Origin: a virus
Length of the DNA: 64,000 nucleotides
Reading direction: 5' to 3' (one strand)
IMG/VR virus record: IMGVR_UViG_3300050343_000243
Coordinates: 1-64,000 of that record
Shown here: piece after piece, positions 16,003-47,453 of the stretch
How positions within the stretch are numbered: the stretch's first letter is position 1
Layout of the letters: each line of letters begins with the position of its first letter
The notes under the pieces: model-generated
Databases searched by the model: none
Told to the model about the DNA's origin: nothing
Seen by the model: the letters and a program-made list of their open reading frames with translations, nothing else
Position numbers and translations under genes: made by a program

Positions 16003-16035
16003 GCCCACTCCGTGGGCTTTATAACCATGTGTCTT
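16003..16035 (+). promoter_or_regulatory. Hairpin-N12-TGT element 1
   Basis: GCCCAC-TCC-GTGGGC, 12 nt, TGTCTT; ATG 16049; no plus-strand gene upstream. Confidence 0.7.
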
Positions 16036-16048
16036 TTACATAATTCAC

Positions 16049-16162
16049 ATGTTTCTTGTATTCAATTCATGGCTCGTTAGTAACGCGCTCATCATCAATG
16101 AATTCGGTAATCGTTACGCCTATACCTGGCGTGGTGAACCATTGTTCTGTTCAATTAAATGA
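16049..16162 (+). CDS. Small hypothetical protein (37 aa)
   Basis: MFLVFNSWLV...; exactly fills the space between two elements. Confidence 0.5.
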   Translation: MFLVFNSWLVSNALIINEFGNRYAYTWRGEPLFCSIK

Positions 16163-16171
16163 ACCATAACT

Positions 16172-16204
16172 CCCCACTCTGTGGGGTTTTTCTTCATGTG
16201 TCTT
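16172..16204 (+). promoter_or_regulatory. Hairpin-N12-TGT element 2
   Basis: CCCCAC-TCT-GTGGGG, 12 nt, TGTCTT; ATG 16218. Confidence 0.7.
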
Positions 16205-16217
16205 CTATCTAATTCAC

Positions 16218-16373
16218 ATGCGTAACTTCCAACTTCAAGTTCAATTCAACGGTGTTGGTGAACTCTATACGACCACGTGGTCACCACGTTCTTACAAGTC
16301 CGTATCCACGTTGTACAACATCTACACACGCAGGTTTCCCAATAATATCTATTGGATCTTACCAGTTGATTGA
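16218..16373 (+). CDS. Small hypothetical protein (51 aa)
   Basis: MRNFQLQVQFNG...; fills the cassette. Confidence 0.55.
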   Translation: MRNFQLQVQFNGVGELYTTTWSPRSYKSVSTLYNIYTRRFPNNIYWILPVD

Positions 16374-16380
16374 ACCTTAT

Positions 16381-16413
16381 CCCCGCTCTGCGGGGTTTAT
16401 CTTTCATTACTTC
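16381..16413 (+). promoter_or_regulatory. Hairpin element 3 (variant TACTTC box)
   Basis: CCCCGC-TCT-GCGGGG, 12 nt, TACTTC. Confidence 0.55.
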
Positions 16414-16490
16414 TTCGATGTAATTGCTTGTGCGTCTATCGCATTTCTTTTGCATCGTTGCTTGTCGGCATCTCTTTATATCTAAATTCA

Positions 16491-16670
16491 ATGACTAACA
16501 ATCCATATGTGGATCAAATAATCCAGCAGACAGGTTGCACTGAACGTGAAGTTCGTGCCTTCTCTGTTCCTATGCGTCCGATGACCTTCCCTTGCGTCAT
16601 CCACGGACGGACATTCGAATCACATGATGACTACATCAATGCGATGTATGACTACCTCGATTCAATGTAG
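16491..16670 (+). CDS. Hypothetical protein
   Basis: MTNNPYVDQIIQQTG...FPCVIHGRTFES. Confidence 0.6.
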   Translation: MTNNPYVDQIIQQTGCTEREVRAFSVPMRPMTFPCVIHGRTFESHDDYINAMYDYLDSM

Positions 16671-16675
16671 CTTTT

Positions 16676-16708
16676 ACCCCCTCCGGGGGTTTTATTTGCG
16701 CGTGTTCT
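16676..16708 (+). promoter_or_regulatory. Hairpin-N12-TGT element 4
   Basis: ACCCCC-TCC-GGGGGT, 12 nt, TGTTCT; GTG 16723. Confidence 0.7.
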
Positions 16709-16722
16709 TCTTACTCACCACT

Positions 16723-16902
16723 GTGTCTAACACTTACACGCCTGTTCTCGTCGGTGCAACTATCGGCCTCGGCCTTGCTGCCGTTGGCTTCTTCACCCTC
16801 CCCTGGTACCACGACTTCCTCGTCTGGTCCTACGCCTCACCTTGGACCTGGATCATTGGTATCTCAGGTGGTGCTGCTCTAGCTATTGCTACAGACGATT
16901 GA
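16723..16902 (+). CDS. Small membrane protein (two hydrophobic helices)
   Basis: MSNTYTPVLVGATIGLGLAAVG... Confidence 0.6.
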   Translation: MSNTYTPVLVGATIGLGLAAVGFFTLPWYHDFLVWSYASPWTWIIGISGGAALAIATDD

Positions 16903-16908
16903 ACCTTA

Positions 16909-16941
16909 ACCCCCTTCGGGGGGTTTATTTGCATGTGCAAT
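16909..16941 (+). promoter_or_regulatory. Hairpin-N12-TG element 5
   Basis: CCCCC-TTC-GGGGGG, 12 nt, TGCAAT; ATG 16958. Confidence 0.65.
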
Positions 16942-16957
16942 TCATTTACCAATTCAC

Positions 16958-17155
16958 ATGCTTGCCACTAAAGCTATCCTTCACAAAGTCAACCGTACCC
17001 GTGGTCTCATCACTTGGCACTTCGTCGAGAATGAATCTAACGGTAGATGTAAAGCTATCCGCAATGACGGACGAGTGTTCGATTACTTGAACATCAAAGA
17101 CATGCGAGAAGGCTACCGCTTCATGCGTGATACCTACGGTTTTCAACCTATGTGA
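16958..17155 (+). CDS. Hypothetical protein
   Basis: 65 aa, fills the cassette. Confidence 0.6.
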   Translation: MLATKAILHKVNRTRGLITWHFVENESNGRCKAIRNDGRVFDYLNIKDMREGYRFMRDTYGFQPM

Positions 17156-17166
17156 ACAGAGGATAT

Positions 17167-17199
17167 GCCCCTTCCAGGGGCTTTTTCCTTCTTTGCCTT
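17167..17199 (+). promoter_or_regulatory. Hairpin-N12-TG element 6
   Basis: GCCCCT-TCC-AGGGGC, 12 nt, then a TGCC-TTAATT-GGCA hairpin. Confidence 0.7.
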
Positions 17200-17233
17200 A
17201 ATTGGCATTGTTCACTTATGATTTAATTTAACT

Positions 17234-17455
17234 ATGGCTTTTCGTATCCCTGGACGTAAAGAAAGCATCCGTGTCTTCGACCGTGTCAAATGTCTGGATA
17301 CACAGTATGACGTCTTCGATGTTGGTGTACAACACGCTGACGGTGGTATCGACTCTGTAGTTGTCGGTGTATCTGCCTACTCTCTCAAGAAGGCTATTGC
17401 TGCACTCAACTCCAAGGCTGATGCCAAGGAAGCAGAAGCTCCCGCTACTGTCTAA
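17234..17455 (+). CDS. Hypothetical protein
   Basis: 73 aa. Confidence 0.65.
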   Translation: MAFRIPGRKESIRVFDRVKCLDTQYDVFDVGVQHADGGIDSVVVGVSAYSLKKAIAALNSKADAKEAEAPATV

Positions 17456-17462
17456 TGACTGC

Positions 17463-17488
17463 TCCCCCTTCGGGGGGTTTTTTCTTTT
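17463..17488 (+). terminator. Intrinsic terminator
   Basis: CCCCC-TTCG-GGGGG plus T tract at a convergent gene junction. Confidence 0.65.
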
Positions 17489-17507
17489 GTTTCGGACAAC
17501 CGTTGAT

Positions 17508-17999
17508 TTACTTGTAGCGAATCATCAGGTTCTCGTCCTCATCCTCCGGTGCTAACGCTGCGGCGATGTCCATCAGACCTTTGCCTGCAAGTGATACACC
17601 TGTTGCTGGTAATACATACCTAGCACTAGCGGAGACTACGGGTTGTCCATATTTCATTGCTTGATGAGCAAGCATCGTTAACCGATCATTCGGATCAACT
17701 CCCTCAATAGTTCCCAACCCTCGTGTAATTGGTGATCCAACAATCTCACCTGTCATATTACGGACAACTCCCATAGGTGTGCCTCCCCTAGGGTCACCTT
17801 CGGGTAGGACAATGGCGTCCCGTACTTTGTCAGCGTACATATCATCAAACTGACGTAACTGTCCTCCAATAGGAGCAGCTGCGGCTACCACTCGTTCTCC
17901 AAGTGAACGCAGCATGTGATCAACCTGATCCTTAACTGTACGTGCATCTCCACGACGGTAAGTACGTCCGGGCTGATTACGATATGCCATTGTTACCAT
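17508..17999 (-). CDS. Late-type hypothetical protein inserted in the early region
   Basis: 163 aa; TACAATAG octamer upstream. Confidence 0.6.
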   Translation of the reverse strand: MVTMAYRNQPGRTYRRGDARTVKDQVDHMLRSLGERVVAAAAPIGGQLRQFDDMYADKVRDAIVLPEGDPRGGTPMGVVRNMTGEIVGSPITRGLGTIEGVDPNDRLTMLAHQAMKYGQPVVSASARYVLPATGVSLAGKGLMDIAAALAPEDEDENLMIRYK

Positions 18000-18043
18000 T
18001 TATTTAACACCCCTCTATTGTATTCAATTAGGCTTATAAAGAA

Positions 18044-18229
18044 ATGATTAAGATACTAATAGCTACCCTGCTAATAATACCCCCTACCGTACTAATTCCC
18101 GCTACTGCAACACCTAATCTCTGCGAAGAGATAGAAGCTGTGCTGTGGGAAGCGGTAGAGGATGGGTACATAAAAGAGCAGGTGGCCATAAGAGTGGCTG
18201 GTAACTGCTCACTCGAAACATACGAATAA
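18044..18229 (+). CDS. Small secreted/membrane protein
   Basis: Signal-like N-terminus, two Cys. Confidence 0.55.
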   Translation: MIKILIATLLIIPPTVLIPATATPNLCEEIEAVLWEAVEDGYIKEQVAIRVAGNCSLETYE

Positions 18230-18237
18230 CAGCCATT

Positions 18238-18270
18238 ACCCCTTCCAGGGGTTTTTTCAAACGTTGTCCT
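18238..18270 (+). promoter_or_regulatory. Hairpin-N12-TGT element 7
   Basis: ACCCCT-TCC-AGGGGT, 12 nt, TGTCCT; ATG 18284 starts a run of tiny hydrophobic ORFs. Confidence 0.7.
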
Positions 18271-18601
18271 TTGATAAATACGCATGACTACTGCTGTAAT
18301 TATCTTCAGCTGGTTATTCGCCTTTTACGTAATAAAGACGGAAAACCCTTTTGGCTTATGACAATGGTGCTATACGCAGCACTCACTATGGTTCTCCATC
18401 TTGAGCTAACTGCAACTCCAATTGTCCTACTGCCATTCATCTTCCCACGGGAAGAAATTGTTCCTATTTCTCTACAACCATGATTCAATTCGACTCACAA
18501 ACTATCATCCTGGCTATCATTGGTATGACAGGACTATTTGCTACTGCAACAGTCCTTTCGTACAGCTTTAAGCGCAACAGAACAGGTAACGGAAGGTACC
18601 A

Positions 18602-18823
18602 ATGAGAACATTAGATGGGAAAGAGCTCTCTGCTCTCAAAGACGAATATGCTTCTGCCGTTGTCGAAAAGATGACGAATGCAGAAGCTCGATCATATCTA
18701 CGTCAGATTATCTACAACGATGTTGCTGTAGCTGACGGTCTGGACCTCTCTAAACGAATACTCAAAGTGTTCGGTGAAGAAGAGTACGACGATATGGTTG
18801 AGTTCGTCACCCGTAATAACTAG
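18602..18823 (+). CDS. Small helical cyanophage protein
   Basis: 73 aa; weakly similar to 34309-34488 and 34485-34685. Confidence 0.6.
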   Translation: MRTLDGKELSALKDEYASAVVEKMTNAEARSYLRQIIYNDVAVADGLDLSKRILKVFGEEEYDDMVEFVTRNN

Positions 18824-18905
18824 GTAGGGTATCCTCTCCTCTAAACCGAATAGCCTGGTCAAAAGATCAGGCTTAATATAAATCTAGTGATATATAAATA
18901 AGCAC

Positions 18906-19148
18906 ATGGGCTTCTATAACAATCCCTTCCAACTAGTGAACGACCTAGTGAACATCCCTTTCGGCTCCGATGTATATGTCATCTCTGATGAGAAATATAA
19001 GGAGTTAAAACAGAAACAGGCAAGAGATGAAATCTCTGTGCTCGAACGTAGGCTCGAATCTTACGAAGTCGCGGCTACGAAACTACGAGATACCATCGCT
19101 TCTCTAAATGAGGAGCATGGTTTGCTCCCACCTCCTACTGATAAGTAA
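18906..19148 (+). CDS. Coiled-coil protein resembling a conserved picocyanobacterial small protein
   Basis: VYVISD motif followed by a coiled coil. Confidence 0.55.
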   Translation: MGFYNNPFQLVNDLVNIPFGSDVYVISDEKYKELKQKQARDEISVLERRLESYEVAATKLRDTIASLNEEHGLLPPPTDK

Positions 19149-19153
19149 CCAAT

Positions 19154-19186
19154 GCCCCCTCCGGGGGCTTTTTAGTCAGTTGTTCT
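19154..19186 (+). promoter_or_regulatory. Hairpin-N12-TGT element 8
   Basis: GCCCCC-TCC-GGGGGC, 12 nt, TGTTCT; ATG 19200. Confidence 0.75.
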
Positions 19187-19199
19187 TTGATTGTCTCTT

Positions 19200-19445
19200 A
19201 TGACTATCATCTCAACTGCGAAACCTGTATCTCTTGAAGATGCTTTGGACATCGCTGAACAGCGTGCTTATGCCGCTAAAACACCTGCCTTCCCTCCTAT
19301 TACCGACACTATTGTCTGGTTTAAACAGGTGGACTGGGCAGATGTACGTCAACGTGCTCGGGCTGGTGTCAACAATGTTGGTCTTGTCCTCGCTGTCGTT
19401 GGCGAGAAAGTACATGACTTTGGTGCCTTCTTGGCAAACGTCTGA
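19200..19445 (+). CDS. Hypothetical protein
   Basis: 81 aa, fills the cassette. Confidence 0.6.
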   Translation: MTIISTAKPVSLEDALDIAEQRAYAAKTPAFPPITDTIVWFKQVDWADVRQRARAGVNNVGLVLAVVGEKVHDFGAFLANV

Positions 19446-19451
19446 ACTTAT

Positions 19452-19484
19452 GCCCCCCCTGGGGGCTTTTCTTTCATTTGTCCT
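19452..19484 (+). promoter_or_regulatory. Hairpin-N12-TGT element 9
   Basis: GCCCCC-CCT-GGGGGC, 12 nt, TGTCCT; ATG 19499. Confidence 0.75.
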
Positions 19485-19498
19485 ACAAATGATTGCAC

Positions 19499-19585
19499 AT
19501 GTCATCAATCCTGATTGCACACCTGCAAAAACAAGCAGCTCGTCGCTTACGTATTGAGAAGCAATATGCGCTCGCTCGTAAGTAA
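19499..19585 (+). CDS. Basic micro-protein (28 aa)
   Basis: MSSILIAHLQKQAARRLRIEKQYALARK; fills the cassette. Confidence 0.45.
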   Translation: MSSILIAHLQKQAARRLRIEKQYALARK

Positions 19586-19592
19586 GGAACCT

Positions 19593-19625
19593 GCCCCCTC
19601 TGGGGGCTTTGTTTTCCATTGTCTT
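19593..19625 (+). promoter_or_regulatory. Hairpin-N12-TGT element 10
   Basis: GCCCCC-TCT-GGGGGC, 12 nt, TGTCTT; ATG 19639. Confidence 0.75.
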
Positions 19626-19638
19626 CTATTTCTGAACA

Positions 19639-19785
19639 ATGGAACTCTATTCAGAACTTTCCTTGATCTCCGATTACAAGGAAGAAACCTACGACTGGAT
19701 GTCATCTGATGACATTGACGTCGATGACTACGAGTACGTCCAGAACCTCGCTTCGGGCGTTGCCTCTCAATCTCGGTACTTCTGA
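19639..19785 (+). CDS. Acidic micro-protein (48 aa)
   Basis: MELYSELSLISDYKEETYDWMSSDDIDVDDYEY... Confidence 0.55.
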   Translation: MELYSELSLISDYKEETYDWMSSDDIDVDDYEYVQNLASGVASQSRYF

Positions 19786-19791
19786 ACTTAT

Positions 19792-19824
19792 GCCCCCCCT
19801 GGGGGCTTTTCTTTAATTTGTAGT
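19792..19824 (+). promoter_or_regulatory. Hairpin-N12-TGT element 11
   Basis: Near-identical to element 9; TGTAGT box; ATG 19838. Confidence 0.75.
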
Positions 19825-19837
19825 TCTCGTTATATTC

Positions 19838-20230
19838 ATGAGCGATTCAATCGAAAACACTCTTCCCAACTCAATCAGCACTGCTGATCTACAAAAGTTG
19901 GCAGACGCTGCTGCAGAAGCAGGGTCTAACAAGAAGACTGAAGAGGAGAAAACCTACGGTGGACTCACCGTTGACGAACTCTGGGATGTCGCAGACGCAG
20001 GTTTAACTCTTATTCAAGAGAATTGTTCCCATCCCCTTGGACACAAGGTTGCTGCCATCATTGTCATGGGTAACATGCTCAATTGGCACAATAAGATGGC
20101 TGAGCAAATGATGGAAGATGGCGAATTTTCAAATGTTGCCGCTTGGCTCAAAGACGCAGGTAAATTCCAAGCCATCATGAACATCCTTCAAACCATTGAA
20201 ATTGGTGACGACGACCCTACAACTCTCTGA
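19838..20230 (+). CDS. Hypothetical protein
   Basis: 130 aa. Confidence 0.7.
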   Translation: MSDSIENTLPNSISTADLQKLADAAAEAGSNKKTEEEKTYGGLTVDELWDVADAGLTLIQENCSHPLGHKVAAIIVMGNMLNWHNKMAEQMMEDGEFSNVAAWLKDAGKFQAIMNILQTIEIGDDDPTTL

Positions 20231-20236
20231 TCCTTT

Positions 20237-20271
20237 GCCCCCCCCCTGGGGGCTTTTCTTTTATTTGTACT
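20237..20271 (+). promoter_or_regulatory. Hairpin-N12-TGT element 12
   Basis: G-C9-T-GGGGGC, 12 nt, TGTACT; ATG 20285. Confidence 0.7.
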
Positions 20272-20284
20272 TAGTAAAATACAA

Positions 20285-20446
20285 ATGCAGTGGGCAGTTA
20301 TGACCAACGCTCAAGAATGTCTTGGCGTATGGGTTTCATATGTAGATGCAGCACAGTTTGTATCTGACAACTGTGAACATGAGAATGACATCTATGTCAT
20401 CCCTTCCGAGGAGCTCACTAGTGAGACTGTCCTCTTGAATGCCTGA
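20285..20446 (+). CDS. Small hypothetical protein (53 aa)
   Basis: MQWAVMTNAQECLGVW...; fills the cassette. Confidence 0.55.
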   Translation: MQWAVMTNAQECLGVWVSYVDAAQFVSDNCEHENDIYVIPSEELTSETVLLNA

Positions 20447-20450
20447 CCTT

Positions 20451-20483
20451 GCCCCCTCTGGGGGCTTTCACAATCATTGTTCT
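20451..20483 (+). promoter_or_regulatory. Hairpin-N12-TGT element 13
   Basis: GCCCCC-TCT-GGGGGC, 12 nt, TGTTCT; ATG 20500. Confidence 0.75.
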
Positions 20484-20499
20484 TCAATTGATTGCGTTT

Positions 20500-20712
20500 A
20501 TGGCAACTTCCTTCGATTTCACCATCATCAGTGACACCACTGTACCTGGTATTTCGTTGGTCGTAAGTCATAACGAAGATGCATTCAGCTACATCACGGA
20601 AGAAGAGAACATGACCTGTCTAGATGATGGATCTGTTCCTCTTGCTACTGACAAAGTCGGTGACTTCATTTCTGACGCTGGTTGGGATAAATACTCCTGC
20701 GAACTCGTTTGA
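20500..20712 (+). CDS. Acidic hypothetical protein
   Basis: MATSFDFTIISD..., 70 aa. Confidence 0.6.
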   Translation: MATSFDFTIISDTTVPGISLVVSHNEDAFSYITEEENMTCLDDGSVPLATDKVGDFISDAGWDKYSCELV

Positions 20713-20727
20713 CTTCGATCAACCATT

Positions 20728-20760
20728 GCCCCCTCCGGGGGCTTTATCTCTCATTGTTCT
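20728..20760 (+). promoter_or_regulatory. Hairpin-N12-TGT element 14
   Basis: GCCCCC-TCC-GGGGGC, 12 nt, TGTTCT; ATG 20774. Confidence 0.75.
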
Positions 20761-20773
20761 TTACATCACATTC

Positions 20774-21202
20774 ATGACTGACAAGACCTACGCATCATTC
20801 AACGCTCTCACCATCACTGGTCGCGTTTCTCATGCGGAAATGGTAGAAGGTAAGTATGGCAAGTTTCTTGCTGTAACTCTCCTGTCTGAATTGCAGAATG
20901 ACGCACCTGCTGTCGCTGTTCAATTCAATCAAACTTCTGGTCTTCTCTTCTCCATCTTTGGTAAAGACGAGACTGCACTGCAGGGTCGTCTGGTTACTAT
21001 CACTGGACATCTTGAGTCCTTCACCGAACTCTACTTCGATAAGAAGATCGGTAAGACCAAGCGCCTTCAGCGTCCCCGTCTCCAACTGTCCAAGGCAGTT
21101 GTTCTCGACGGTGGTCTTGGACCTAGCAAGCGTAAGGATGAGCCAGTCGATTCCGATATCGAGATCGATGAAGCTCCTGAACTTGCATCTGCAGAGTACT
21201 GA
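20774..21202 (+). CDS. SSB-like OB-fold protein
   Basis: FNALTITGRV...GRLVTITGHL pattern of SSB; acidic C-terminal tail. Confidence 0.6.
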   Translation: MTDKTYASFNALTITGRVSHAEMVEGKYGKFLAVTLLSELQNDAPAVAVQFNQTSGLLFSIFGKDETALQGRLVTITGHLESFTELYFDKKIGKTKRLQRPRLQLSKAVVLDGGLGPSKRKDEPVDSDIEIDEAPELASAEY

Positions 21203-21213
21203 TGCAGCCACGT

Positions 21214-21247
21214 GGCACCCTTCGGGGTGCTGCGTTTTTTATTTTTT
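21214..21247 (+). terminator. Intrinsic terminator
   Basis: GCACCC-TTCG-GGGTGC plus T tract. Confidence 0.65.
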
Positions 21248-21267
21248 AAAACTGACTAGGACATACT

Positions 21268-21477: not shown

Positions 21478-21503
21478 ACTAGTAGTACTACTAATTAAAG
21501 CAG

Positions 21504-22554: not shown

Positions 22555-22679
22555 TCACATACATACTTATGATTATGTTTTTCCCATAAGTATCACTTAC
22601 TACTCCTACATGTTATCTATAACTAATAACTTACTAAAATAAATAAAGAACCCAAAAATACCTATTAGTCAAAACAAAT

Positions 22680-22712
22680 GCCCCCACTGGGGGCTTTATT
22701 CGTTGGTGTCCT
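22680..22712 (+). promoter_or_regulatory. Hairpin-N12-TGT element 15
   Basis: GCCCCC-ACT-GGGGGC, 12 nt, TGTCCT; divergent intergenic position; ATG 22725. Confidence 0.75.
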
Positions 22713-22724
22713 TTGAATACATAT

Positions 22725-23285
22725 ATGAGAAGTTTCGCCAATGAAATGTATGTAGGTGTGGAAATCAATCCACCCTGCCCTCACTCTGTAGTTCACGCAT
22801 TCGACCTAGACGACACGCTCTCTTCCAAACCTCAAGGGTTTGACAACACAGGAATGACCAAAGATGAATTCTTTGATGCCAGTCGTGACTTTGAGCCTGA
22901 TATCGCTGTCAAAGATGTTGTTGAACTAATGCATATGCATGGTGATTGCATTGCTATCACTACTGCCCGTCCACCTGAACGCTTGGCCGAGACAGTCCAC
23001 TGGCTGTCAAAGCATGACATTCCTTTTGATCAAATCATTTTGAGCCAAGGAACTGTTCCTTCATCCATTGCCAAACAAGCAATGCTTCAGAAGTTACAAG
23101 ACGACTATCACGAAGTCGGCGTTCTATTTGATGACTCCCCTTACAACATTGAGGGTGCTCGTCTACAAGGCATATCAGCTATTCATCTACGTAAGAACGA
23201 TGAGTACTGGGCCGCTAACCCCGAAGATGTTTACAGGTACGAAGATGAACAAGCACGAGAAGAAGCAAATCAAACTCATTGCTAA
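22725..23285 (+). CDS. HAD-family phosphatase (PNK 3'-phosphatase-like)
   Basis: FDLDDT motif I, TTAR motif II, K, FDDS motif IV. Confidence 0.8.
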   Translation: MRSFANEMYVGVEINPPCPHSVVHAFDLDDTLSSKPQGFDNTGMTKDEFFDASRDFEPDIAVKDVVELMHMHGDCIAITTARPPERLAETVHWLSKHDIPFDQIILSQGTVPSSIAKQAMLQKLQDDYHEVGVLFDDSPYNIEGARLQGISAIHLRKNDEYWAANPEDVYRYEDEQAREEANQTHC

Positions 23286-23391
23286 AGCAGACGCTTGCAC
23301 CTCACGTGAGGAAGCTGTGAAACTTATACTCAAAGCAGAGAAACTTCGAGCTAAATTATTAGCGAAGAAGCTTTTATCTGATGCCAATTAA
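23245..23391 (+). CDS. Small basic protein
   Basis: MNKHEKKQIKLIAKADACTSREEA... Confidence 0.45.
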   Translation: MNKHEKKQIKLIAKADACTSREEAVKLILKAEKLRAKLLAKKLLSDAN

Positions 23392-23463
23392 CACTGTATT
23401 ATTCGGTCTCGCAATGTTCCTCATTGGCGAGATCACCGGAATAATTATACCTACCTTACATTA

Positions 23464-23952
23464 ATGATCAAAAAAATATTTACTGTACTTGCAGGACTTG
23501 CAATTGCTTCTCCTGTCAATGCAACTAGTTGGACAGATGTCAATACTCTGACCGATCTAGTAAAACAAACTGGAACTACCGTTGAAGCGCGAGACTGTCA
23601 ACGCGAAGGTCTACAAGGCTTTTATCAATATGATCAAGAAGCAGGGATAGATCTACTCGTTGTTTGCTCAAACGTTGTTGATATGTCTGACTCCGATGCT
23701 GTATGGGAAGTTGTTTCTCATGAAGCAACGCATGTCATGCAAGCATGTATAGGTGGACCTGTCTTGAAAGACACCTATATCCCCCGTGTATTGCGTGAAC
23801 TGCAAGAAACAGCTCCTCACTATTATCAAACTCTTCAGCAATATCGTGGCGATCACAAACGCTACGAGCTAGAAGCGTTCTGGATGGAACTACGTGCTCC
23901 AAATGTTGTCCATGAATTCTTGGACAGATCTTGTTTCGCACAACCTGAATGA
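23464..23952 (+). CDS. Secreted HEXXH metallopeptidase-like protein
   Basis: Signal peptide; HEATHVMQ...ELEA. Confidence 0.65.
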   Translation: MIKKIFTVLAGLAIASPVNATSWTDVNTLTDLVKQTGTTVEARDCQREGLQGFYQYDQEAGIDLLVVCSNVVDMSDSDAVWEVVSHEATHVMQACIGGPVLKDTYIPRVLRELQETAPHYYQTLQQYRGDHKRYELEAFWMELRAPNVVHEFLDRSCFAQPE

Positions 23953-23957
23953 CATCT

Positions 23958-23990
23958 GCCCCCTCCGGGGGCTTTGTCTGTTCATGTTCT
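23958..23990 (+). promoter_or_regulatory. Hairpin-N12-TGT element 16
   Basis: GCCCCC-TCC-GGGGGC, 12 nt, TGTTCT; ATG 24005. Confidence 0.75.
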
Positions 23991-24004
23991 TTCTCTAGGA
24001 ACTT

Positions 24005-24223
24005 ATGAACATCCCAATGGTGAGTATCCCTCAAGTCCAACTTGATCAACTCATTCGAGATCTGCAAAAAGCAGAAGGTTACTGCCGTAGGGCACGTCCT
24101 GCTTCACGTCATCCGTCTCGTGAAGAACTATTCGCAGAACCTACCGAGTTCTACTCCGGTGCATCTGGCTTTGCCGGTGCAACTCTGCGGAATGCGATTC
24201 AAACTATCGAATCGTACCTGTGA
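24005..24223 (+). CDS. Hypothetical protein
   Basis: 72 aa. Confidence 0.6.
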   Translation: MNIPMVSIPQVQLDQLIRDLQKAEGYCRRARPASRHPSREELFAEPTEFYSGASGFAGATLRNAIQTIESYL

Positions 24224-24232
24224 TTGGTACAA

Positions 24233-24262
24233 GCCACTGCCTTCGGGTAGTGGCATTTTTTT
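24233..24262 (+). terminator. Intrinsic terminator
   Basis: GCCACTGCC-TTCG-GGTAGTGGC plus T7. Confidence 0.75.
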
Positions 24263-24428
24263 ATTTAAACTACAAATATGTGTGAAATCTTATTTGCTTA
24301 CTTAATTATCAACGCTATTGAAGCCACTCCTGGCCACATGCGGGTTGAACAGTTGCGTTATACCGACGGTATCCATACTGAAACTCGTGTAATCCATGTT
24401 CCTACCCAAGAGTATTTAGACTGTTGGG

Positions 24429-24623: not shown

Positions 24624-24644
24624 AAATATTGCTTCTATATTCTC

Positions 24645-26639: not shown

Positions 26640-26672
26640 GCCCCCTCCGGGGGCTTGATCCTTTCGTGCGCT
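26640..26672 (+). promoter_or_regulatory. Hairpin-N12-TG element 17
   Basis: GCCCCC-TCC-GGGGGC, 12 nt, T then a GCGCTTT-GAAA-AAAGCGT hairpin. Confidence 0.75.
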
Positions 26673-26705
26673 TTGAAAAAAGCGTGTTCTTTATATGTCA
26701 ATTCA

Positions 26706-27650
26706 ATGCCCGCAAATTTCACATCTGGCTGGCTCGGCAACGGCGAACGTGCATGGCACGAAATGGGGGTCGTCACCGACGGCACCCTGCCAGCGCGAGA
26801 AGCGTTTGAAACTGCCGACGCTTTATTCACAGTCGAAAAGCGAGAACTTCTCGTTCCAGTCACATTTAACGGACAAGCCTCAGTTGCCGCATCAGGCACC
26901 TACGGAGTTGTCCGTACTGACAGTCAAGGATTACTCGGTGTTGTCAGCAAGCAATATGAAATCGTTCAAAACGATTCGCTCCTTCGGATGGCTGAATTCA
27001 TCCGCGAGGAGGCAGACATGGACTGCGTCATCGTTCTATCGGACGGAGCCAAAGTCTGCTTTACCGCCACACTCCGTGGTGCGGAGACGGACATCGTCCC
27101 TGGCGACACAGTCAAACGACGCATCGTTGGCTATCTAGGACACGACGGCAAGACTGGTTGTGGTGCAAAGTTCACCAACATCCGTGTTGTCTGTCAAAAC
27201 ACACTGACTGCCGCTCTCAATGAGAGTGGTGCTCAATCAAGCATCACCCATAAGGGTACTGCCAACGCTAACTTCGATGCTCTTATCAACAGTATTGACG
27301 TAGCACGGCAAGACTTTGCCGCTGAATGTGATCTGATGCGTGAGTTTTCACGTACCCACATGAGTGCTACTGGCTTCAACGAGTTTGCTGACCACGTTTA
27401 CAACATCAGTGAAGGTGAAGTATTTCGCAAACGTCAGAAGCTAGAGCAAGCATTCCGTGCTGGTTATGGTTCGGAGTATGCCTCATTCTCACTATGGAAT
27501 GGCTTGAATGCCATCACCCAAGTAGAAACAAGCACCCGTGGCACTACAGCTGCCAAGGGTAGAGCACAGTTTGCACGTGGCACCTTTGGTTCTGGTGCTG
27601 TTATCAGCAAAAAAGCTTTCTCTGTTGCACGTGACCTAGTTACTGGCTGA
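26706..27650 (+). CDS. DUF932 family protein
   Basis: AWHEMG...YEIVQN...GHDG...RVVCQNTL...H motifs. Confidence 0.85.
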   Translation: MPANFTSGWLGNGERAWHEMGVVTDGTLPAREAFETADALFTVEKRELLVPVTFNGQASVAASGTYGVVRTDSQGLLGVVSKQYEIVQNDSLLRMAEFIREEADMDCVIVLSDGAKVCFTATLRGAETDIVPGDTVKRRIVGYLGHDGKTGCGAKFTNIRVVCQNTLTAALNESGAQSSITHKGTANANFDALINSIDVARQDFAAECDLMREFSRTHMSATGFNEFADHVYNISEGEVFRKRQKLEQAFRAGYGSEYASFSLWNGLNAITQVETSTRGTTAAKGRAQFARGTFGSGAVISKKAFSVARDLVTG

Positions 27651-31249: not shown

Positions 31250-31283
31250 GCCCCCTCCGGGGGCTATATTAAATAGGTGCCCG
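31250..31283 (+). promoter_or_regulatory. Hairpin element 18 (13-nt spacer)
   Basis: GCCCCC-TCC-GGGGGC, 13 nt, TGCCC...GGGC hairpin; ATG 31317. Confidence 0.65.
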
Positions 31284-31316
31284 GCGATTGGGCCTGAACA
31301 TATATATTTCAATTGA

Positions 31317-31661: not shown

Positions 31662-31694
31662 GCCCCCTCCGGGGGCTTGATTCTTCCATGCCCA
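31662..31694 (+). promoter_or_regulatory. Hairpin-N12-TG element 19
   Basis: GCCCCC-TCC-GGGGGC, 12 nt, TGCCC-ATAT-GGGC; ATG 31724. Confidence 0.75.
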
Positions 31695-31723
31695 TATGGG
31701 CTTCAACTACATCCAAACTAACT

Positions 31724-32368
31724 ATGACTATCGCTCCTGTTAATACCTCTGTTCTTTCTCAATTCATTGGCGAAGTACAAGACAGCTACGACATGATGAT
31801 CGGCATCGCTCTTGTCAAAGAGTCCGATGCAGTGTTCTTCGAGTACCAGGGCGACAAGCAACAGCCTGTGCCTCTCATGCTGTCGAACGGTCGTCCTCTC
31901 ACATACCTGCGGAACGTGCGTCTGGGTGGTATCAGCATTGCCGAAGACATTGGTGAGTTCAACTCCACCAAGCTCAACATCATTCTCGAAGCTGGCGGCA
32001 AGCGTGTACTTGTTACCTCTGGTCTCACTACTCTCTGGTCTCAAGCTGTGATGACTGGCCTCATGGGCATGTTCAACAGCTACGACCTTGATACTCCTTT
32101 CACTCTCAACACATGGAAGGGTACCTCGAAGATGCGACCTGCATTCGCTTCTATCAAGCTTGCTGGTGACGTCAAAGTTTCTGATCAGATGCTGTACGAC
32201 CAGCTCTGTGAACTCCGTAGTGATCGCGCTGCCGACAAGATCAAAGCTGTCATGCGTGACTCCGTAGAGATCCTGGCCGCTGGCCTGGCTGGTGGTATGC
32301 CTGCCATCAGTGTTGTTGTCGAAGAGCCCAAAGCTCTTACCTCTGTTGAGGAAGCTCTCGACTTCTGA
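31724..32368 (+). CDS. Hypothetical protein
   Basis: 214 aa with an acidic C-terminus ending EEALDF. Confidence 0.7.
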   Translation: MTIAPVNTSVLSQFIGEVQDSYDMMIGIALVKESDAVFFEYQGDKQQPVPLMLSNGRPLTYLRNVRLGGISIAEDIGEFNSTKLNIILEAGGKRVLVTSGLTTLWSQAVMTGLMGMFNSYDLDTPFTLNTWKGTSKMRPAFASIKLAGDVKVSDQMLYDQLCELRSDRAADKIKAVMRDSVEILAAGLAGGMPAISVVVEEPKALTSVEEALDF

Positions 32369-32528
32369 ATGACTAATCGGGTAGTCACCGAGATGCATGC
32401 AGCACGTAGGTATCTAACCAACGTGCTCTTGCACTTAAGTGTTGACGCAGACAATCTCACTGTCTATCAGTTGATCCAATTACTTGATCACTTTGCAGAA
32501 CACCCAAATGAATACATCGAACTAACCA

Positions 32529-40163: not shown

Positions 40164-40227
40164 AACATTTATAGCTCACATTTATCTATTGTATTACTTA
40201 TATTTGTAGAGTCTAATCATTAATTAT

Positions 40228-40968: not shown

Positions 40969-41028
40969 GTGTCACCATATATGGCACCAGGCTTGTATCA
41001 ACTACATAACAACTAGATGAATTAGAAA

Positions 41029-42708: not shown

Positions 42709-44905
42709 GAACTGCGTAAATAAACAAAACCCTCAGCTAGTAGCACGGGGTTGGTCAAACGTACTAGTCGATATCGACTGGTTAATGGGATGGGTAGGCA
42801 ACGGCTATGGCTGGTGCGCTACCCATTTTCATCAGAAGCACAGGCTCGCTGATAATGCTGCTGGTAGCAACCTCGTAGTCATTGACTTCGATGGTGACAC
42901 CACACTTGATACGTTCTGGGCTACCGACACCGCACAACAGTGGTGTGCAGGTACCTATACCTCTGCTTCTTACACAGAAGAAGAGCACAGATTCCGTGCT
43001 CTATTCCCTCTAGCTATAGATCTAGAGAGTTCCGCGCAGCACCGTGGTGCCTACTGGCTCATTGTCAATCGGTTACTGGCAGACCTAGGTCTTACAGAAC
43101 TCAAAGACAACTGTGGTCAAAAGCCTGAACGGCTCTGGTATGGCAACCAAAAGACGCAAACTAAGTTAAATCCTGGCGCAGAAGTCCCTGACTTTCTGCT
43201 TAATGACATTGACTACGACGAGCCCGCAGAGTTTACTCACTCTGACTGTGCAGAGATCGATGTCAAACGCTGCCAGTGGCTACTGCGTGAGTTCCTAGAG
43301 CCCTCAAACGACGATGAGTACGAGTCTTACTACGTGCCCGTTATGGCCGCTTGTGCAGGCGTAGGGACAGTGATCTTTGATGACTGGGTTGACTGGGTAA
43401 TCCGTGGTCATCATGGTCATAAAGAAGAAAATATCCGAAGGTTTAAGTGGAAAGGTCTTGGTAAATATGCAGGTCATACTAAACTGTATTCGCTTGCTAA
43501 AAAGCAAGATCCCAATTGGACTAGACAACTACCTAGTCAGCTCCGCTTTGGTGCTGCAGGTAGTGCCGTTGGATATACAGAGCTTGATCCAGTTATCAAC
43601 TTTGGAGAATTCATATCAACAAGTAAAGGAGAGACGATGGATTTTGATGTAGAACCGCTTGCGGATTCTCAACAAGCGCCGAAGAAGCGCGGACGTCCCA
43701 AGAAAAGTAATGACGACGCTGCCAAAGAACGTGAGGCTGACGTAGACAAAGTATCTACGATCCTCTCTGGTTTACGTAAGAACCGTCTTACTAACACCAT
43801 TGAGTACGACGGTCCCAATGGTCAAGTCGTACAGCTCGAAGGCAATGACCTCGATCTAATGACAACAAAGATGGCTTGTGAGCACGGGGTGTTTATCCCC
43901 GAGCCTCGTATCAAGTCAGCTATTCAGTACGCAGCTATCAAAAATAGCTACTGCCCTATCACTCGTTACCTCGATGGGTGTGCAGCTCATTCCACACCTC
44001 ACCCCGAGTGGGAGCGTATTGGTGAAGTGTTTCTAGGTAACAAGCACCAGCTTGCGACCTTGGCAATGAAGCGCATGATGATTGGCGCAGTTGCTCGTGC
44101 ATACAACCCAGGTCAGTCAATGTCCTGGCTTCCAATCCTTGTGGGTGCACAGGGTGTTGGTAAGTCGATGTTTGCTCGCAACCTTGTACCTGATGCACTG
44201 TTCTCGGAGATCACTACTCCACTAGAGACACTGATCAAAGAGCAGTATCGACTTCATGTGGCGTGGCTCCTAGAGCTTCCCGAGATTGATAACTACTTCA
44301 ACATCAGGAACATTGAGAACTTCAAGAACCTGATCACCAGTCGGGTTGATGAAGTCCGATTCCCTTATGCATCACTGCCATCGAAGCTGCCTCGTCGCTT
44401 CGTAATGATTGGAACCACGAACCGTAACCAGTTCCTTGTGGACTCCACAGGTAACAGACGTTTCGTTCCTCTTGAGATTGGCGCAGGCTTTCAAATTCCT
44501 TGGAAGCAACTGATTGCAGAACGCGACAGCCTCTGGGCTGCTGCTGTTGCTGATTATCGAGCCAACGTTGGATACGAATTCAACAGTGGTGAGATCGCTG
44601 CTATCTCGGAGTACATCCAAGAGTTTGGCGATCCTGATCCATGGCTCGACAAAATCGGTGCTTATGTCGCTATCCGTGAGGAAGTGACTGCTGCAGATGT
44701 TCTATCGCATGCACTGGAACTAGATCCACGTAACCAAAGCAGACGTGAAGGTAGACGTGTTGCTGATGTGCTGCAGTCTATGGGCTGGAGACGATTAGTA
44801 ACTAGCAGGAAAGATCCTGTTACTGGTAAATCAAAGTCAGTTCGTATATGGAAACGTCCTAAGGACGATCCGATTGACGAAACTCATATCCTTAACGATT
44901 TCTAA
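42677..44905 (+). CDS. Primase-helicase (AEP, PriCT-like, VapE ATPase)
   Basis: VIDFD, RFRALFPL; Walker A GAQGVGKS; GTTN, DSTGNRRF; C-terminal winged-helix-like segment. Confidence 0.88.
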   Translation: MTKILKIAVNKNCVNKQNPQLVARGWSNVLVDIDWLMGWVGNGYGWCATHFHQKHRLADNAAGSNLVVIDFDGDTTLDTFWATDTAQQWCAGTYTSASYTEEEHRFRALFPLAIDLESSAQHRGAYWLIVNRLLADLGLTELKDNCGQKPERLWYGNQKTQTKLNPGAEVPDFLLNDIDYDEPAEFTHSDCAEIDVKRCQWLLREFLEPSNDDEYESYYVPVMAACAGVGTVIFDDWVDWVIRGHHGHKEENIRRFKWKGLGKYAGHTKLYSLAKKQDPNWTRQLPSQLRFGAAGSAVGYTELDPVINFGEFISTSKGETMDFDVEPLADSQQAPKKRGRPKKSNDDAAKEREADVDKVSTILSGLRKNRLTNTIEYDGPNGQVVQLEGNDLDLMTTKMACEHGVFIPEPRIKSAIQYAAIKNSYCPITRYLDGCAAHSTPHPEWERIGEVFLGNKHQLATLAMKRMMIGAVARAYNPGQSMSWLPILVGAQGVGKSMFARNLVPDALFSEITTPLETLIKEQYRLHVAWLLELPEIDNYFNIRNIENFKNLITSRVDEVRFPYASLPSKLPRRFVMIGTTNRNQFLVDSTGNRRFVPLEIGAGFQIPWKQLIAERDSLWAAAVADYRANVGYEFNSGEIAAISEYIQEFGDPDPWLDKIGAYVAIREEVTAADVLSHALELDPRNQSRREGRRVADVLQSMGWRRLVTSRKDPVTGKSKSVRIWKRPKDDPIDETHILNDF

Positions 44906-44934
44906 TTACACTAATTAATACATAGGTATATAAA

Positions 44935-45171
44935 ATGCAAGCAACAGATATCAAGCTGGGCCTTCGTGTCTGTGTAAAAACTAATGGCATGACTGCACTA
45001 GTTGTGGGTCGTCCGGAGTACTACACACCACGATCAAAACTTGTACGAATCAAATATGAAAACAGTACACGTTTTGAATACATGATTAGCAATCAACTCT
45101 CGCCACTGCCTACTGAAGATCAGTATCCAGCACTGGGAGGCACATACGTAAAACCTGAAGGAGAATTCTGA
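44935..45171 (+). CDS. Small SH3-like hypothetical protein
   Basis: 78 aa, beta-rich. Confidence 0.55.
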   Translation: MQATDIKLGLRVCVKTNGMTALVVGRPEYYTPRSKLVRIKYENSTRFEYMISNQLSPLPTEDQYPALGGTYVKPEGEF

Positions 45172-45986
45172 TGGCTGAAGCTCAACCTCATAAAGGCCGT
45201 GGTGGCCATGCATATGGCAGGCGTGTCAAGCAACTCTCCAATACTGCAGAAGAGGGAGAGCTTTGCCTGTATTCAGGACACTCACTTGGCAGGTTCTCTA
45301 CTCACAGCATGCGGTATGACAGTCACCAAGCATGTGTTCGCTGTGTAGCTGGTGCTCGTGAAGGGCGTATGTCCTTTGACATCAGCAAACTGCTAAAGAA
45401 AAATCGAATTAAAGCTCTTAAATTTTGGTCACAAGTAGACATTGCATCACCCGAAGAATGCTGGGAATGGCAAGGCAACATCAACAAACACACAAAACAA
45501 CCACAGTTTTCGTGGAGACGACACGGGATTAGCTCTTCTACACAACATCATCCCCAGCGGGTTGCTACTTGGTTTACTTGGGGTGATCTTGGATTTACCG
45601 GCGTTAAAACTACTTGTGGTAATAAGTATTGCTGCAATCCTTTTCATCTTATTCCGCAAAATATTGGTGTCTTTGTAGATCACGACAGTTATCTAGAAAG
45701 CTTTGAGCTTGCATGTGAAATTCATACGCTGAAGCAACAAGTTGCCGAGTATGTAATGGAGCAAGCAATCAAGGAGCAAGAGAAGCTAGAACGTATCGAG
45801 CACCTAGATGGTAAAGAAGAGCTAATACTTAATCCAAACACGTTGTTTGATCAGAGGTATGCAGCTGTCATGGTGGATATGCTCAACGGAAACCATACCA
45901 GTCAAATAGATCCTAAGTCTTTGGGACTCCATGGTCAACCAGAGGACCATGAAACTGATGAGGATGACCCCACATCAGACTTTTAA
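45171..45986 (+). CDS. Degenerate HNH/Zn-loop endonuclease-like protein
   Basis: FWSQVD...CWEWQG...CGNKYCCNPFHL; usual His residues replaced. Confidence 0.65.
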   Translation: MAEAQPHKGRGGHAYGRRVKQLSNTAEEGELCLYSGHSLGRFSTHSMRYDSHQACVRCVAGAREGRMSFDISKLLKKNRIKALKFWSQVDIASPEECWEWQGNINKHTKQPQFSWRRHGISSSTQHHPQRVATWFTWGDLGFTGVKTTCGNKYCCNPFHLIPQNIGVFVDHDSYLESFELACEIHTLKQQVAEYVMEQAIKEQEKLERIEHLDGKEELILNPNTLFDQRYAAVMVDMLNGNHTSQIDPKSLGLHGQPEDHETDEDDPTSDF

Positions 45987-46018
45987 ATAACCTATTCTTA
46001 TACAAGAGTCATTACATT

Positions 46019-46441
46019 ATGTCTAGACGAACTGACCTACTACAGCAACTTATTAAATCAGATAAGTGGGGTGATGAAAAAGATCAGGAGCAGAAGTTTT
46101 TAGCTGCAACTGCTGAACTCATCCTCACTGATCTCATTAATATCGCTATCAAAGGTGTTGAAAGTCAAGGCGCTGGATCTCTGATTATTAATTTGCAGAA
46201 CGACTCCACGACATTCATGTCAGGTAGCAGCATTGAAAGTGACATCATTGTTGCTGAAGCTGAAGAAGACACTGATGTACTGGAGTTCTTGCGCAAACTG
46301 ATTGAAGAAGTTGATGAAAATGATTGGTCACAAAACGTACTCGTAACCTTGATCAGTGATGCTGGAACAAGAACATTTAGTCTCGAAGCAGGAGGGAGCC
46401 AAGAAAGCTTCCGATCGATCGCAGCAGAATTTAGCGGATAA
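46019..46441 (+). CDS. Hypothetical protein
   Basis: 140 aa, acidic. Confidence 0.65.
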   Translation: MSRRTDLLQQLIKSDKWGDEKDQEQKFLAATAELILTDLINIAIKGVESQGAGSLIINLQNDSTTFMSGSSIESDIIVAEAEEDTDVLEFLRKLIEEVDENDWSQNVLVTLISDAGTRTFSLEAGGSQESFRSIAAEFSG

Positions 46442-47027
46442 GTTAAAAGAAAAAGGATTAAAGCTGCCTCTCTATCCAACGCCACAACTCATTGAAAGAG
46501 CGCGGCAAGTGATGGGGAGCATTGACTTTGATCCAACATCTGATCCTGTCCAGCAAGTTCTAGTTGATGCAACATCTGTGCCATCTGTAGAAGTAAACCC
46601 ACTACAAGAACACTGGCACGGCAATGTTTGGGTTGCTCCTAAAGGGGCAGTACGTAATACACGTATCTGGCTTAATAAAACCATTAACGAGTATCGCAAC
46701 AACTACATCAAAAGCTTCGTATTCTTTACTAGTGCCAGTGAAATTATTCGTGCCACTCCTATTATTTGGGACTATCCTGTATGCATTCCTTTCAGGAGAG
46801 TTAAACAGCTTCGCGCTACAGCAAATGGCTTCGAACCTGTCTGTCCTTCCACATGGAACGTACTGATCTACGGTCCACCCCTAGATGAAGCGATCAGTGA
46901 CATCGATAAGGTGACACTCTTTTACAACACGTTCAGAGATATCGGACGTGTCATCTTTAACGAATATGCCGGTGATAACTGGTCCAAAGACCTAGAACAT
47001 TTTGAAGAGCACAGAGGTGAAGTATGA
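46356..47027 (+). CDS. Degenerate phage N6-adenine methyltransferase-like protein
   Basis: PTPQLIERARQVMGSIDFDP...WHGNVWVAPKG (NPPY replaced). Confidence 0.6.
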   Translation: MMLEQEHLVSKQEGAKKASDRSQQNLADKLKEKGLKLPLYPTPQLIERARQVMGSIDFDPTSDPVQQVLVDATSVPSVEVNPLQEHWHGNVWVAPKGAVRNTRIWLNKTINEYRNNYIKSFVFFTSASEIIRATPIIWDYPVCIPFRRVKQLRATANGFEPVCPSTWNVLIYGPPLDEAISDIDKVTLFYNTFRDIGRVIFNEYAGDNWSKDLEHFEEHRGEV

Positions 47028-47437
47028 GTAGGCACATCAACCCCAAGGCTTTCTACAACCTACCGTCTGGTGCTCGTGTTCATCCCTGTAGGTTGATCCA
47101 AAAAGATGGCACGTTGATGTGGAAGCACGCGCTGCTTTCACAAAACGAACTTATCTGCATTCCAACTGTGCAGCCACACGAGGCTCACATTATTAAAACT
47201 GCTCAACGCATTGAAGAACTGAACTCCTGGGTCTCTCAAGACCTTGACCCATGGGAGTTTCTTAAGCCAGTGTCTTGGTATAACCCTGAAGTTCCGGGAA
47301 TGGATCAAGGTATTTCATTGTTCTTTAAACATACGAGCTTGCCTAATAATCAAGTCTATGACATATTAAACAGGCACATAAGTGAGTATGAAACGTTAAA
47401 GCAACATCAAGGTCTTCTGTTTTTCCAAAGGTGTTAG
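47024..47437 (+). CDS. Hypothetical protein
   Basis: 137 aa. Confidence 0.6.
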   Translation: MSRHINPKAFYNLPSGARVHPCRLIQKDGTLMWKHALLSQNELICIPTVQPHEAHIIKTAQRIEELNSWVSQDLDPWEFLKPVSWYNPEVPGMDQGISLFFKHTSLPNNQVYDILNRHISEYETLKQHQGLLFFQRC

Positions 47438-47438
47438 T

Positions 47439-47453
47439 GCCCCCTCCGGGGGC
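47439..47453 (+). promoter_or_regulatory. Hairpin element 20 (no TG box; convergent junction)
   Basis: GCCCCC-TCC-GGGGGCTTGATCC, same start as element 17. Confidence 0.5.

Follow-up and report, generated by a model that had tools for sequence, protein, structure and literature searches.

The window analysed here is the first 64 kb (64,000 nucleotides) of the 79,462-bp viral record IMGVR_UViG_3300050343_000243, which is rated complete, and it carries on its plus strand a recurrent cassette in which a short GC hairpin is followed, 12 nucleotides (nt) on, by a TGT-containing box and then by the start codon of a gene. The same layout is kept on the early strand of all seven related marine viral genomes that were compared (S-EIV1-like cyanophages). 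We propose, tentatively and at somewhat less than even confidence, that the cassette is an RNA-level punctuation of early and middle operons in a marine S-EIV1-like Synechococcus phage lineage, a proposal that includes cleavage of the transcript and shuffling of the units so delimited. An original prediction for this element had put first a hairpin promoter for a phage-encoded or injected polymerase, which found no support; the ruler-type RNA processing site that it had held in reserve fits the explanation favoured here and shares its tentative standing.

The lineage is common in the sea and infects one of the main marine primary producers. It has no cultured member, and its gene control has therefore been readable so far from sequence alone. 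The cassette offers a testable model for how messages might be delimited and translated in cyanobacteria without a Shine-Dalgarno (SD) sequence.

A hairpin and a box at a fixed distance

All 20 plus-strand hairpins are present where the original prediction had placed them, between 16003 and 47453. Its description of a 6-bp GC stem with a 3-nt loop holds for 19 copies, but the hairpin at 16909 is better drawn with a UUCG tetraloop and the loop at 20237 has 5 nt. In 17 copies TG falls at positions +13/+14 past the stem, as had been claimed; the exceptions are 16381, where the box is degenerate, 16909 and 31250, where it is displaced by 1 nt, and 47439, which lacks it. The ATG of ordinary copies lies at +31 to +35, most often at +32, which is 19 nt past the T of TGT. 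When the pattern was defined strictly (6-bp GC stem, loop of 3-5 nt, T directly after it, TGT at +13), it matched 12 times on the plus strand, never on the minus strand, and never in 20 composition-preserving shuffles. The element is strand-specific, its 3′ flank being rich in T solely on the coding strand, and it occupies a place typical of RNA signals, the open reading frames (ORFs) between elements stopping 4-15 nt ahead of the next hairpin.

A logo pooled from 43 non-redundant copies reads T1 n T3 A4 t t t ... D12 T13 G14 T15 Y16 C17 T18 T19 T20 R21. Of 83 copies from eight genomes, 82 have G, A or T ahead of TG and one has C; C is nearly excluded from this position, and the core of the box is therefore DTGT. 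In addition, pairing between the upstream flank and the 12-nt spacer is specific to the copy (within-genome permutation p = 0.0004), which places TG at the foot of a longer, imperfect helix. Pairing of the box with the start-codon region is weak (p = 0.045), and its complementarity to 16S rRNA was uninformative. The absence of an SD sequence holds for the cassette genes but is not peculiar to them, as an SD-like motif precedes only 17 of the 131 ORFs in the genome. An Rfam search of the cassettes gave no family match, and no description of a hairpin-12 nt-TGT element was found in the literature searched.

A second class of the element (class II) is represented by the copies at 17167, 31250 and 31662 and by orthologous sites in the relatives. 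Here a mini-hairpin of 4-5 bp (TGCCC-N4-GGGCA) begins exactly at TG and is followed by TTCACTTA. The two parts of the cassette are also separable, since a hairpin stands without a box at 47439, and a box at 26685 stands without the 12-nt spacing and at the usual distance from its ATG.

Conservation of geometry across related genomes

The seven relatives were reached through a kinase-like early protein and the phage sigma factor described below. The original prediction had staked the element on the persistence of the 12-nt spacing in homologous genomes; that spacing is indeed kept in the seven, at 12 ± 1 nt, with spacers that differ in sequence. Their stems are wholly different (for example GGCGTC/GACGCC, CCCCGC/GCGGGG, GGACCC/GGGTCC, GCCGGC/GCCGGC and GCAGGC/GCCTGC), often with TCT or TGT directly after the stem, and their loops have 4-6 nt as opposed to mostly 3 nt in this genome. 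The claim that compensatory changes preserve the structure is borne out on this larger scale: 60 strict cassettes from the eight genomes comprise 45 distinct stem-loops, all of them Watson-Crick paired. Within a genome these stem-loops are alike, and between genomes they differ. Orthologous genes keep their cassette despite the changed stem, and the encoded proteins align from residue 1; therefore the ATG is the real start and the cassette-headed genes are real. Seven tiny ORFs in the cassette region have no homologue even among the close relatives. In the two most distant genomes (G007 and G009) the TGT is kept in about 60% of copies and the CTTT core is often lost.

Cassettes and the phage sigma gene occur together in eight related genomes (G000-G004 and G007-G009, G000 being this phage), and in this lineage the sigma gene was found on at least 80 marine viral contigs, 73-82% identical. 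Synechococcus phage S-EIV1 itself has no cassettes, no sigma gene and no late promoter motif. In the relatives a GAACAC 5′ of the hairpins mirrors the box GTGTTC, without covariation. The record of one relative (G003), at 106 kb, repeats the early region about 81 kb apart and is an assembled concatemer, not a larger genome.

A proposed punctuation of early and middle messages

In the arrangement that we tentatively favour, host RNA polymerase, having started at the leading genome end or at an ordinary -10 promoter, would cross the arrays of small genes. The GC hairpin would fold in the transcript past each stop codon, with the flanks adding a weak lower stem in many copies, and would form a protected 3′ end for the preceding message, whether by terminating leakily or by halting 3′ exonucleases. 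Twelve nt on, at DTGT, the next gene's leader would begin, and an endonuclease cutting at the base of the structure is the most likely origin of its new 5′ end. The product would be an 18-nt pyrimidine-rich leader (UGUYCUUU...) that lacks an SD sequence and has the length of the predicted late-mRNA leaders. Copies would be homogenised within a genome, and the flanked single-gene modules would be shuffled by recombination in the manner of promoter-early stem-loop (PeSL) cassettes.

Several observations point in this direction beyond the strand specificity, the copy-specific pairing and the separable parts already described. TG and ATG are 18 nt apart, which falls within the 17-20 nt predicted for late-mRNA leaders. 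The second hairpin at TG, in class II and in the copy at 26640, occupies the position expected of a 5′-terminal stabilising stem-loop. Together, the leader match and the class II hairpin lend indirect support to the RNA 5′ end at TG that the original prediction had suggested. The cassette hairpins are weaker than the boxless terminators (6 bp, mean -10.6 kcal/mol, with an initial T run averaging 3.2). By comparison, strong hairpins without a box at 17461, 21210, 24233, 29475 and 51568 have 7-11 bp, UUCG-type loops and T5-T7, with a mean of -14.2 kcal/mol. Strong terminators of this kind, together with ordinary promoters, flank cassette-bearing units. For example, the array of 14 cassettes from 16003 to 21202 is closed by the 11-bp terminator at 21210, and the unit at 22635-24264 consists of a promoter (22635), a cassette (22680), genes, a second cassette (23958), a gene and a strong terminator (24233). 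The conservation of structure in place of sequence, and the retention of a cassette with a different stem by orthologous genes, also count in favour of this reading. So do three points described below, namely that no polymerase gene able to read a hairpin promoter was found, that no -10 element is positioned in the cassette, and that the phage uses ordinary promoters.

Other points weigh against this reading. Every RNA-level step is an inference, namely the action of the hairpin as RNA, the presence of an RNA end at TG and cleavage as the source of this end. The stems hold no G-U pairs, which leaves room for action at the level of DNA and leaves the RNA reading unproven. Efficient termination at 14 hairpins in a row would starve the distal genes unless the cassettes restart transcription or antitermination operates. 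No convincing conserved promoter was identified upstream of cassette 1, and no nuclease that might cleave at DTGT was identified. The cyanobacterial RNase E cleavage signature consists of A at -3 and U at +2 (PMC8682795), and as a cause of the TGT it was rejected, the near-invariant T13 G14 T15 being far more specific. A search for phage-encoded CSD, NusB or RRM proteins found none.

Possible leaky terminators and a translation leader without an RNA end

The strongest competing explanation, which we regard as unlikely, is that nothing bipartite exists. On this account the hairpins are leaky intrinsic terminators or attenuators, and the box is the conserved beginning of a translation leader whose pyrimidine-rich sequence lets ribosomes land on polycistronic RNA, no RNA end being formed at TG; the spacing would follow from compact intergenic regions and from recombination that copied whole junctions. 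At least 18 copies in this genome do meet a terminator consensus, homogenisation of stems is seen within genomes, 19452 and 19792 have near-identical junctions, and hairpin and box also occur apart. A U/C-rich segment at -20 to -12 could aid ribosome binding in a genome nearly devoid of SD sequences. A 2x metatranscriptome contig from a relative spans hairpin, box and gene, a weak hint from a run that may contain DNA. However, such an account does not predict that the spacing would stay at 12 ± 1 nt where spacers and stems differ completely between genomes, nor that C would precede TG only once in 83 copies, nor that TG would stay in register where the class II hairpin replaces the box. Furthermore, the other phage genes, late ones included, lack the box, and two cassettes have nothing upstream to terminate, as the original prediction had noticed: the one at 16003 lies near the genome end, and the one at 22680 lies 45 nt past a TAAAAT -10 element.

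The idea that a short leader peptide opens at DTG was rejected, because the stops are inconsistent (26 of 49 closed, as compared to 15 and 20 in the other frames) and because the frame agrees with that of the downstream gene at a rate below chance.

Promoters, the phage sigma factor and possible restart at the box

The polymerase that a hairpin promoter of the N4 type would call for was not visible in the window, as originally reported, and none was found in the complete genome either. A search of that genome with PF00940 (the T7-/N4-type polymerase domain) gave no match, though the controls were silent too. The large ORFs are structural, replication-related or non-conserved. Only three exceed 800 aa, two of them structural or tail-like and the third of 945 aa and absent from all relatives. 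The latter (11263-14100, minus strand, adjoining the genome end) matches no family and has three homologues in 5.8 billion proteins. As a hidden polymerase it was rejected, with no family and no Atlas lead; it has no homologue in the cassette-bearing relatives and is therefore not the reader of a conserved signal. It is a hypervariable gene with a possible role in host recognition.

The only phage transcription factor found is an RpoD-like protein of the sigma-70 family (312 aa, 76226-77164 on the minus strand, in the record beyond the window), in which region 2 and the -10-reading residues are canonical and region 4.2 is altered. Its canonical -10-reading segment therefore fits a second class of promoter that we recognised in this genome, TA[ACG]AAT-AG-N4-A(+1), which has no -35 element and occurs at 45 sites. 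The motif is conserved in the relatives and lies mostly on the late strand, 29-32 nt before the ATG, so that leaders of 17-20 nt are predicted. Examples are found at 8013, 10990, 15345, 18022, 40193, 57016 and 57445 on the minus strand and at 22635, 24616, 50933 and 51177 on the plus strand. Independent support for the motif as a working promoter comes from the TACAAT element at 51177: its predicted start, 51189, is the exact first base of a glutamine riboswitch match (51189-51243, plus strand; Rfam RF01739, 50.9 bits).

The cassette itself contains nothing of this kind. No positioned TAnnnT was found between hairpin and ATG in the 43 non-redundant copies, in agreement with the earlier observation that a sigma-70 -10 box is absent, and no register of a sigma-70 promoter gave a consistent fit, whether leaderless, extended -10, with the hairpin inside the spacer as in a PeSL, or on the antisense strand. 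In fact, sigma-70 promoter-like sites are depleted across 15-33 kb (13 found, 30 expected). Hence the hairpin promoter for a phage or injected polymerase is unsupported: no polymerase gene and no positioned -10 were found, canonical promoters and strong terminators bracket the cassette-bearing units, and the only sigma factor is canonical.

Adapted to the host enzyme, the promoter idea becomes that the cassette ends the upstream transcript and that host RNA polymerase, redirected by a phage factor, restarts at the G of TG. This factor might be the phage sigma, or else some early or injected protein able to recognise the T-rich spacer together with the hairpin region. We consider this quite unlikely, even though much of the evidence cited above could be turned to its account. 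T13 G14 is near-invariant and equals a pyrimidine(-1)/purine(+1) start pair; the 18-nt leader has the length of late-mRNA leaders; the class II hairpin starts exactly at TG; many hairpins look competent for termination; the first genes of two units are headed by cassettes; and one cassette per gene recalls phage early promoters and PeSLs. Sigma and cassettes moreover co-occur in eight genomes and are both missing from S-EIV1. What speaks against restart is that no RNA polymerase gene was found in the genome, that the -10-reading residues of the sigma fit the TAnAAT class instead, and that the spacer holds no conserved -10 (only 26 of 43 copies have A at position 4, and in this genome only 7 of 20). 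Likewise, a -35 element fits no register, a normal promoter already lies 45 nt 5′ of 22680, and hairpin and box are also found apart. In the most specific version, the host polymerase would start at a structure-dependent site, the G of TG being +1, and a phage factor, such as the sigma of this lineage or a small protein that is early or injected, would read the hairpin in DNA or nascent RNA in place of -35 and -10. This appears very unlikely to us. If this minority reading were true, it would be a new kind of promoter, of a type undescribed for a multisubunit bacterial polymerase.

Possible control of elongation

It is also quite improbable, in our estimation, that the cassette controls elongation, either as a boxA-like loading site for NusB/NusE behind a boxB-like hairpin or as a hairpin-stabilised pause at U13/G14. 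In the Nus-site version the polymerase would be made resistant to subsequent hairpins, as in rRNA operon leaders, and such antitermination would account for transcription across 14 hairpins. In favour of the pause version, TG(Y)G makes up the 3′ portion of the consensus elemental pause, and hairpins that promote pausing do so from about 11-12 nt behind the 3′ end of the RNA; against it, the 13 nt between hairpin and U13 exceed the optimal distance for such a pause. The gamma-proteobacterial boxA core GYTCTTTA (PMC5725501) is matched by the box core GTYCTTTR, and the box resembles UGCUCUUUAACA of E. coli and AUGAUCUUUGAAA of B. subtilis, where boxA likewise stands behind a small hairpin (PMC13753749). 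The rRNA leader and spacer of the host also show a hairpin and then a boxA. However, the boxA of the likely host, marine Synechococcus, is GAACCT(T/G)GACAA, which matches the phage consensus TGTYCTTTR at only 5-6 of 9 positions, and a host-type boxA was looked for in the early leaders and none was found. The CTTT core is often lost in G007 and G009 while TGT is kept. Finally, an operon has only one or two nut or rrn sites, and these need not keep a fixed distance from a start codon, as opposed to one per gene, 19 nt from the ATG, in the present case.

Relation to known hairpin systems

The closest parallel is provided by the PeSL cassettes of T4-type phages (Arbiol et al. 2010, PMC2839356), which are likewise dozens of short intergenic cassettes with a G/C-rich stem-loop, extending from a stop codon to the next start and located mostly ahead of small orphan early genes in a hyperplastic region. 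PeSL copies, like the copies described here, are alike within a genome and therefore invite recombination and the shuffling of single-gene modules. The differences are equally clear. PeSLs contain consensus sigma-70 -35 and -10 elements and an SD sequence, none of which is present in our cassette, and their stem-loop lies at variable promoter positions, whereas the stem-loop of our cassette is fixed at 12 nt from DTGT. The existence of a fixed-geometry cassette that lacks promoter boxes and SD shows that an architecture of one regulatory module per accessory gene, as in PeSLs, has also evolved on another molecular basis.

Other systems share fewer features. In coliphage N4 the virion RNA polymerase reads hairpin promoters, and the short GC stem and 3-nt loop in this genome and the location at the leading genome end recall these. 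However, the cassette phage has no polymerase gene, it has more than 20 cassette copies as compared to a few in N4, the loops of its relatives have 4-6 nt, and the supposed start would be about 21 nt from the loop centre. RNase III sites lie between the early genes of phage T7, and the substrate of this enzyme is a two-turn structure. The cassettes are similar in being intercistronic hairpins with, as proposed here, a protective 3′-end hairpin upstream and a new 5′ end downstream, and in some of them an internal loop separates a lower from an upper stem; however, they are far shorter, with a 6-bp core and a weak, inconsistent lower stem. The rRNA-operon and lambda nut sites are alike in that a U-rich box similar to GYUCUUUA comes shortly after a hairpin, but the cassette box is not the host boxA, occurs once per gene, keeps its place relative to the start codon and has become degenerate in two relatives. 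Integron gene cassettes (attC) were rejected: the only match was a sub-threshold, fragmentary one to a tyrosine recombinase at 54300-54488, 30 kb away. Several short minus-strand ORFs at 54228-55114, around that match, resemble integrase remnants.

The individual copies

All copies lie on the plus strand. Cassette 1 (class I, 16003-16048) is the first element past the physical genome end and has the variant stem GCCCAC/GTGGGC, the box TGTCTTTT at 16030 and its ATG at 16049. It is followed by a class I copy at 16172-16217 (stem CCCCAC/GTGGGG, box at 16199, ATG 16218) and by the copy with the degenerate box TTACTTCTT at 16381-16427 (stem CCCCGC/GCGGGG), for which the start codon of the next gene is uncertain. 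The class I copy at 16676-16701 has no downstream ATG; instead the GTG of its box (16702) opens a hydrophobic ORF of 66 codons. The copy with the UUCG-type loop, at 16909-16957, has the box TGCAATTC and its ATG at 16958. In the class II copy at 17167-17233 the 12 nt are followed by a TGCC-N6-GGCA mini-hairpin from TG and then by TTCACTTA; the gene at ATG 17234 is conserved from residue 1.

Further class I copies make up the remainder of the first array. Those at 18238-18283 (box TGTCCTTTGATA, ATG 18284) and 19154-19199 (box TGTTCTTTGATT, ATG 19200) precede the near-identical junctions at 19452-19498 and 19792-19837, the second of which has the box TGTAGTTC and its ATG at 19838, and the gene at 19200 is conserved in the relatives. 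Between these two junctions, at 19593-19638, the box region is complementary to the start-codon region. The copy with the 5-nt loop occupies 20237-20284 (ATG 20285). That at 20451-20499 heads a gene (ATG 20500) which is conserved from residue 1 and whose orthologues are also cassette-headed. The copy at 20728-20773 (box TGTTCTTTACAT, ATG 20774) is the last before the strong terminator at 21210-21245, with its 11-bp stem, UUCG loop and T run and no box.

The second unit opens with the ordinary -10 promoter TAAAAT-AA at 22635-22647, whose predicted start lies about 33 nt 5′ of the hairpin at 22680, and so the class I cassette at 22680-22724 falls within a predicted 5′ untranslated region, ahead of a polynucleotide-kinase-like gene (ATG 22725). 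In the class I copy at 23958-24004 (ATG 24005) the flanks form a 9-bp lower stem. The unit is closed by the boxless strong terminator at 24233-24264 (9-bp stem, UUCG loop, T7). Beyond it lies a composite cassette at 26640-26705, in which 12 nt are followed by a second hairpin from TG (26667) and directly by a second TGTTCTTTATAT box (26685), with the ATG of a DUF932 gene at 26706. Two class II copies follow, one at 31250-31316 with a 13-nt spacer and the mini-hairpin TGCCC...GGGCC (ATG 31317), the other at 31662-31723 with the mini-hairpin TGCCC-ATAT-GGGC (ATG 31724). The hairpin without a box, at 47439-47453, lies between the convergent genes at 47024-47437 (plus strand) and 47462-47956 (minus strand).

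The phage, its genome end and neighbouring features

The window encodes psbA, ribonucleotide reductase, thymidylate synthase, a VapE-type primase-helicase, a split family-A DNA polymerase and a terminase. The nearest isolate is Synechococcus phage S-EIV1, with 54% identity in the terminase, and psbA is 91-93% identical to marine Synechococcus genes. The phage fits with the uncultured marine S-EIV1-like lineage described in bioRxiv 10.1101/325100, where promoters and hairpins go unmentioned. Its early region is found near-unchanged in seawater metagenomes from at least 14 studies, none of these being RNA studies. Three metatranscriptome runs yielded four low-depth contigs, all from relatives and possibly DNA-derived. 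A search for relatives with a 386-aa ORF as the query found none.

The physical genome end was placed at about 15,663, some 340 nt from cassette 1, on the basis of the 304-bp terminal repeats of a relative, a conserved end sequence, and the contig breaks and depth jump of a DNA run. The interval at approximately 15620-15970 takes in this end and a terminal repeat of about 300 bp. The conserved end sequence opens with ATACCCTCTGT and includes GGTGGAAC followed by A8, and in the DNA run the contig breaks and the depth jump fall at 15620-15728. The genome end and terminal repeat lie inside the window; the record is therefore a circular permutation. At 15730-15910, ahead of cassette 1, a leader without ORFs contains repeated GTTCAC, GAACAC and ACATCTGT motifs as well as a CGCTCGCTTCGCTCGCT repeat, and the leader of the relatives matches it.

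Finally, beside the last class II cassette, ORFs at 31688-32368 (plus strand) and 31718-32398 (minus strand) mirror each other on opposite strands, each being exactly 226 aa long; conservation favours the plus-strand gene, with its start at 31724.

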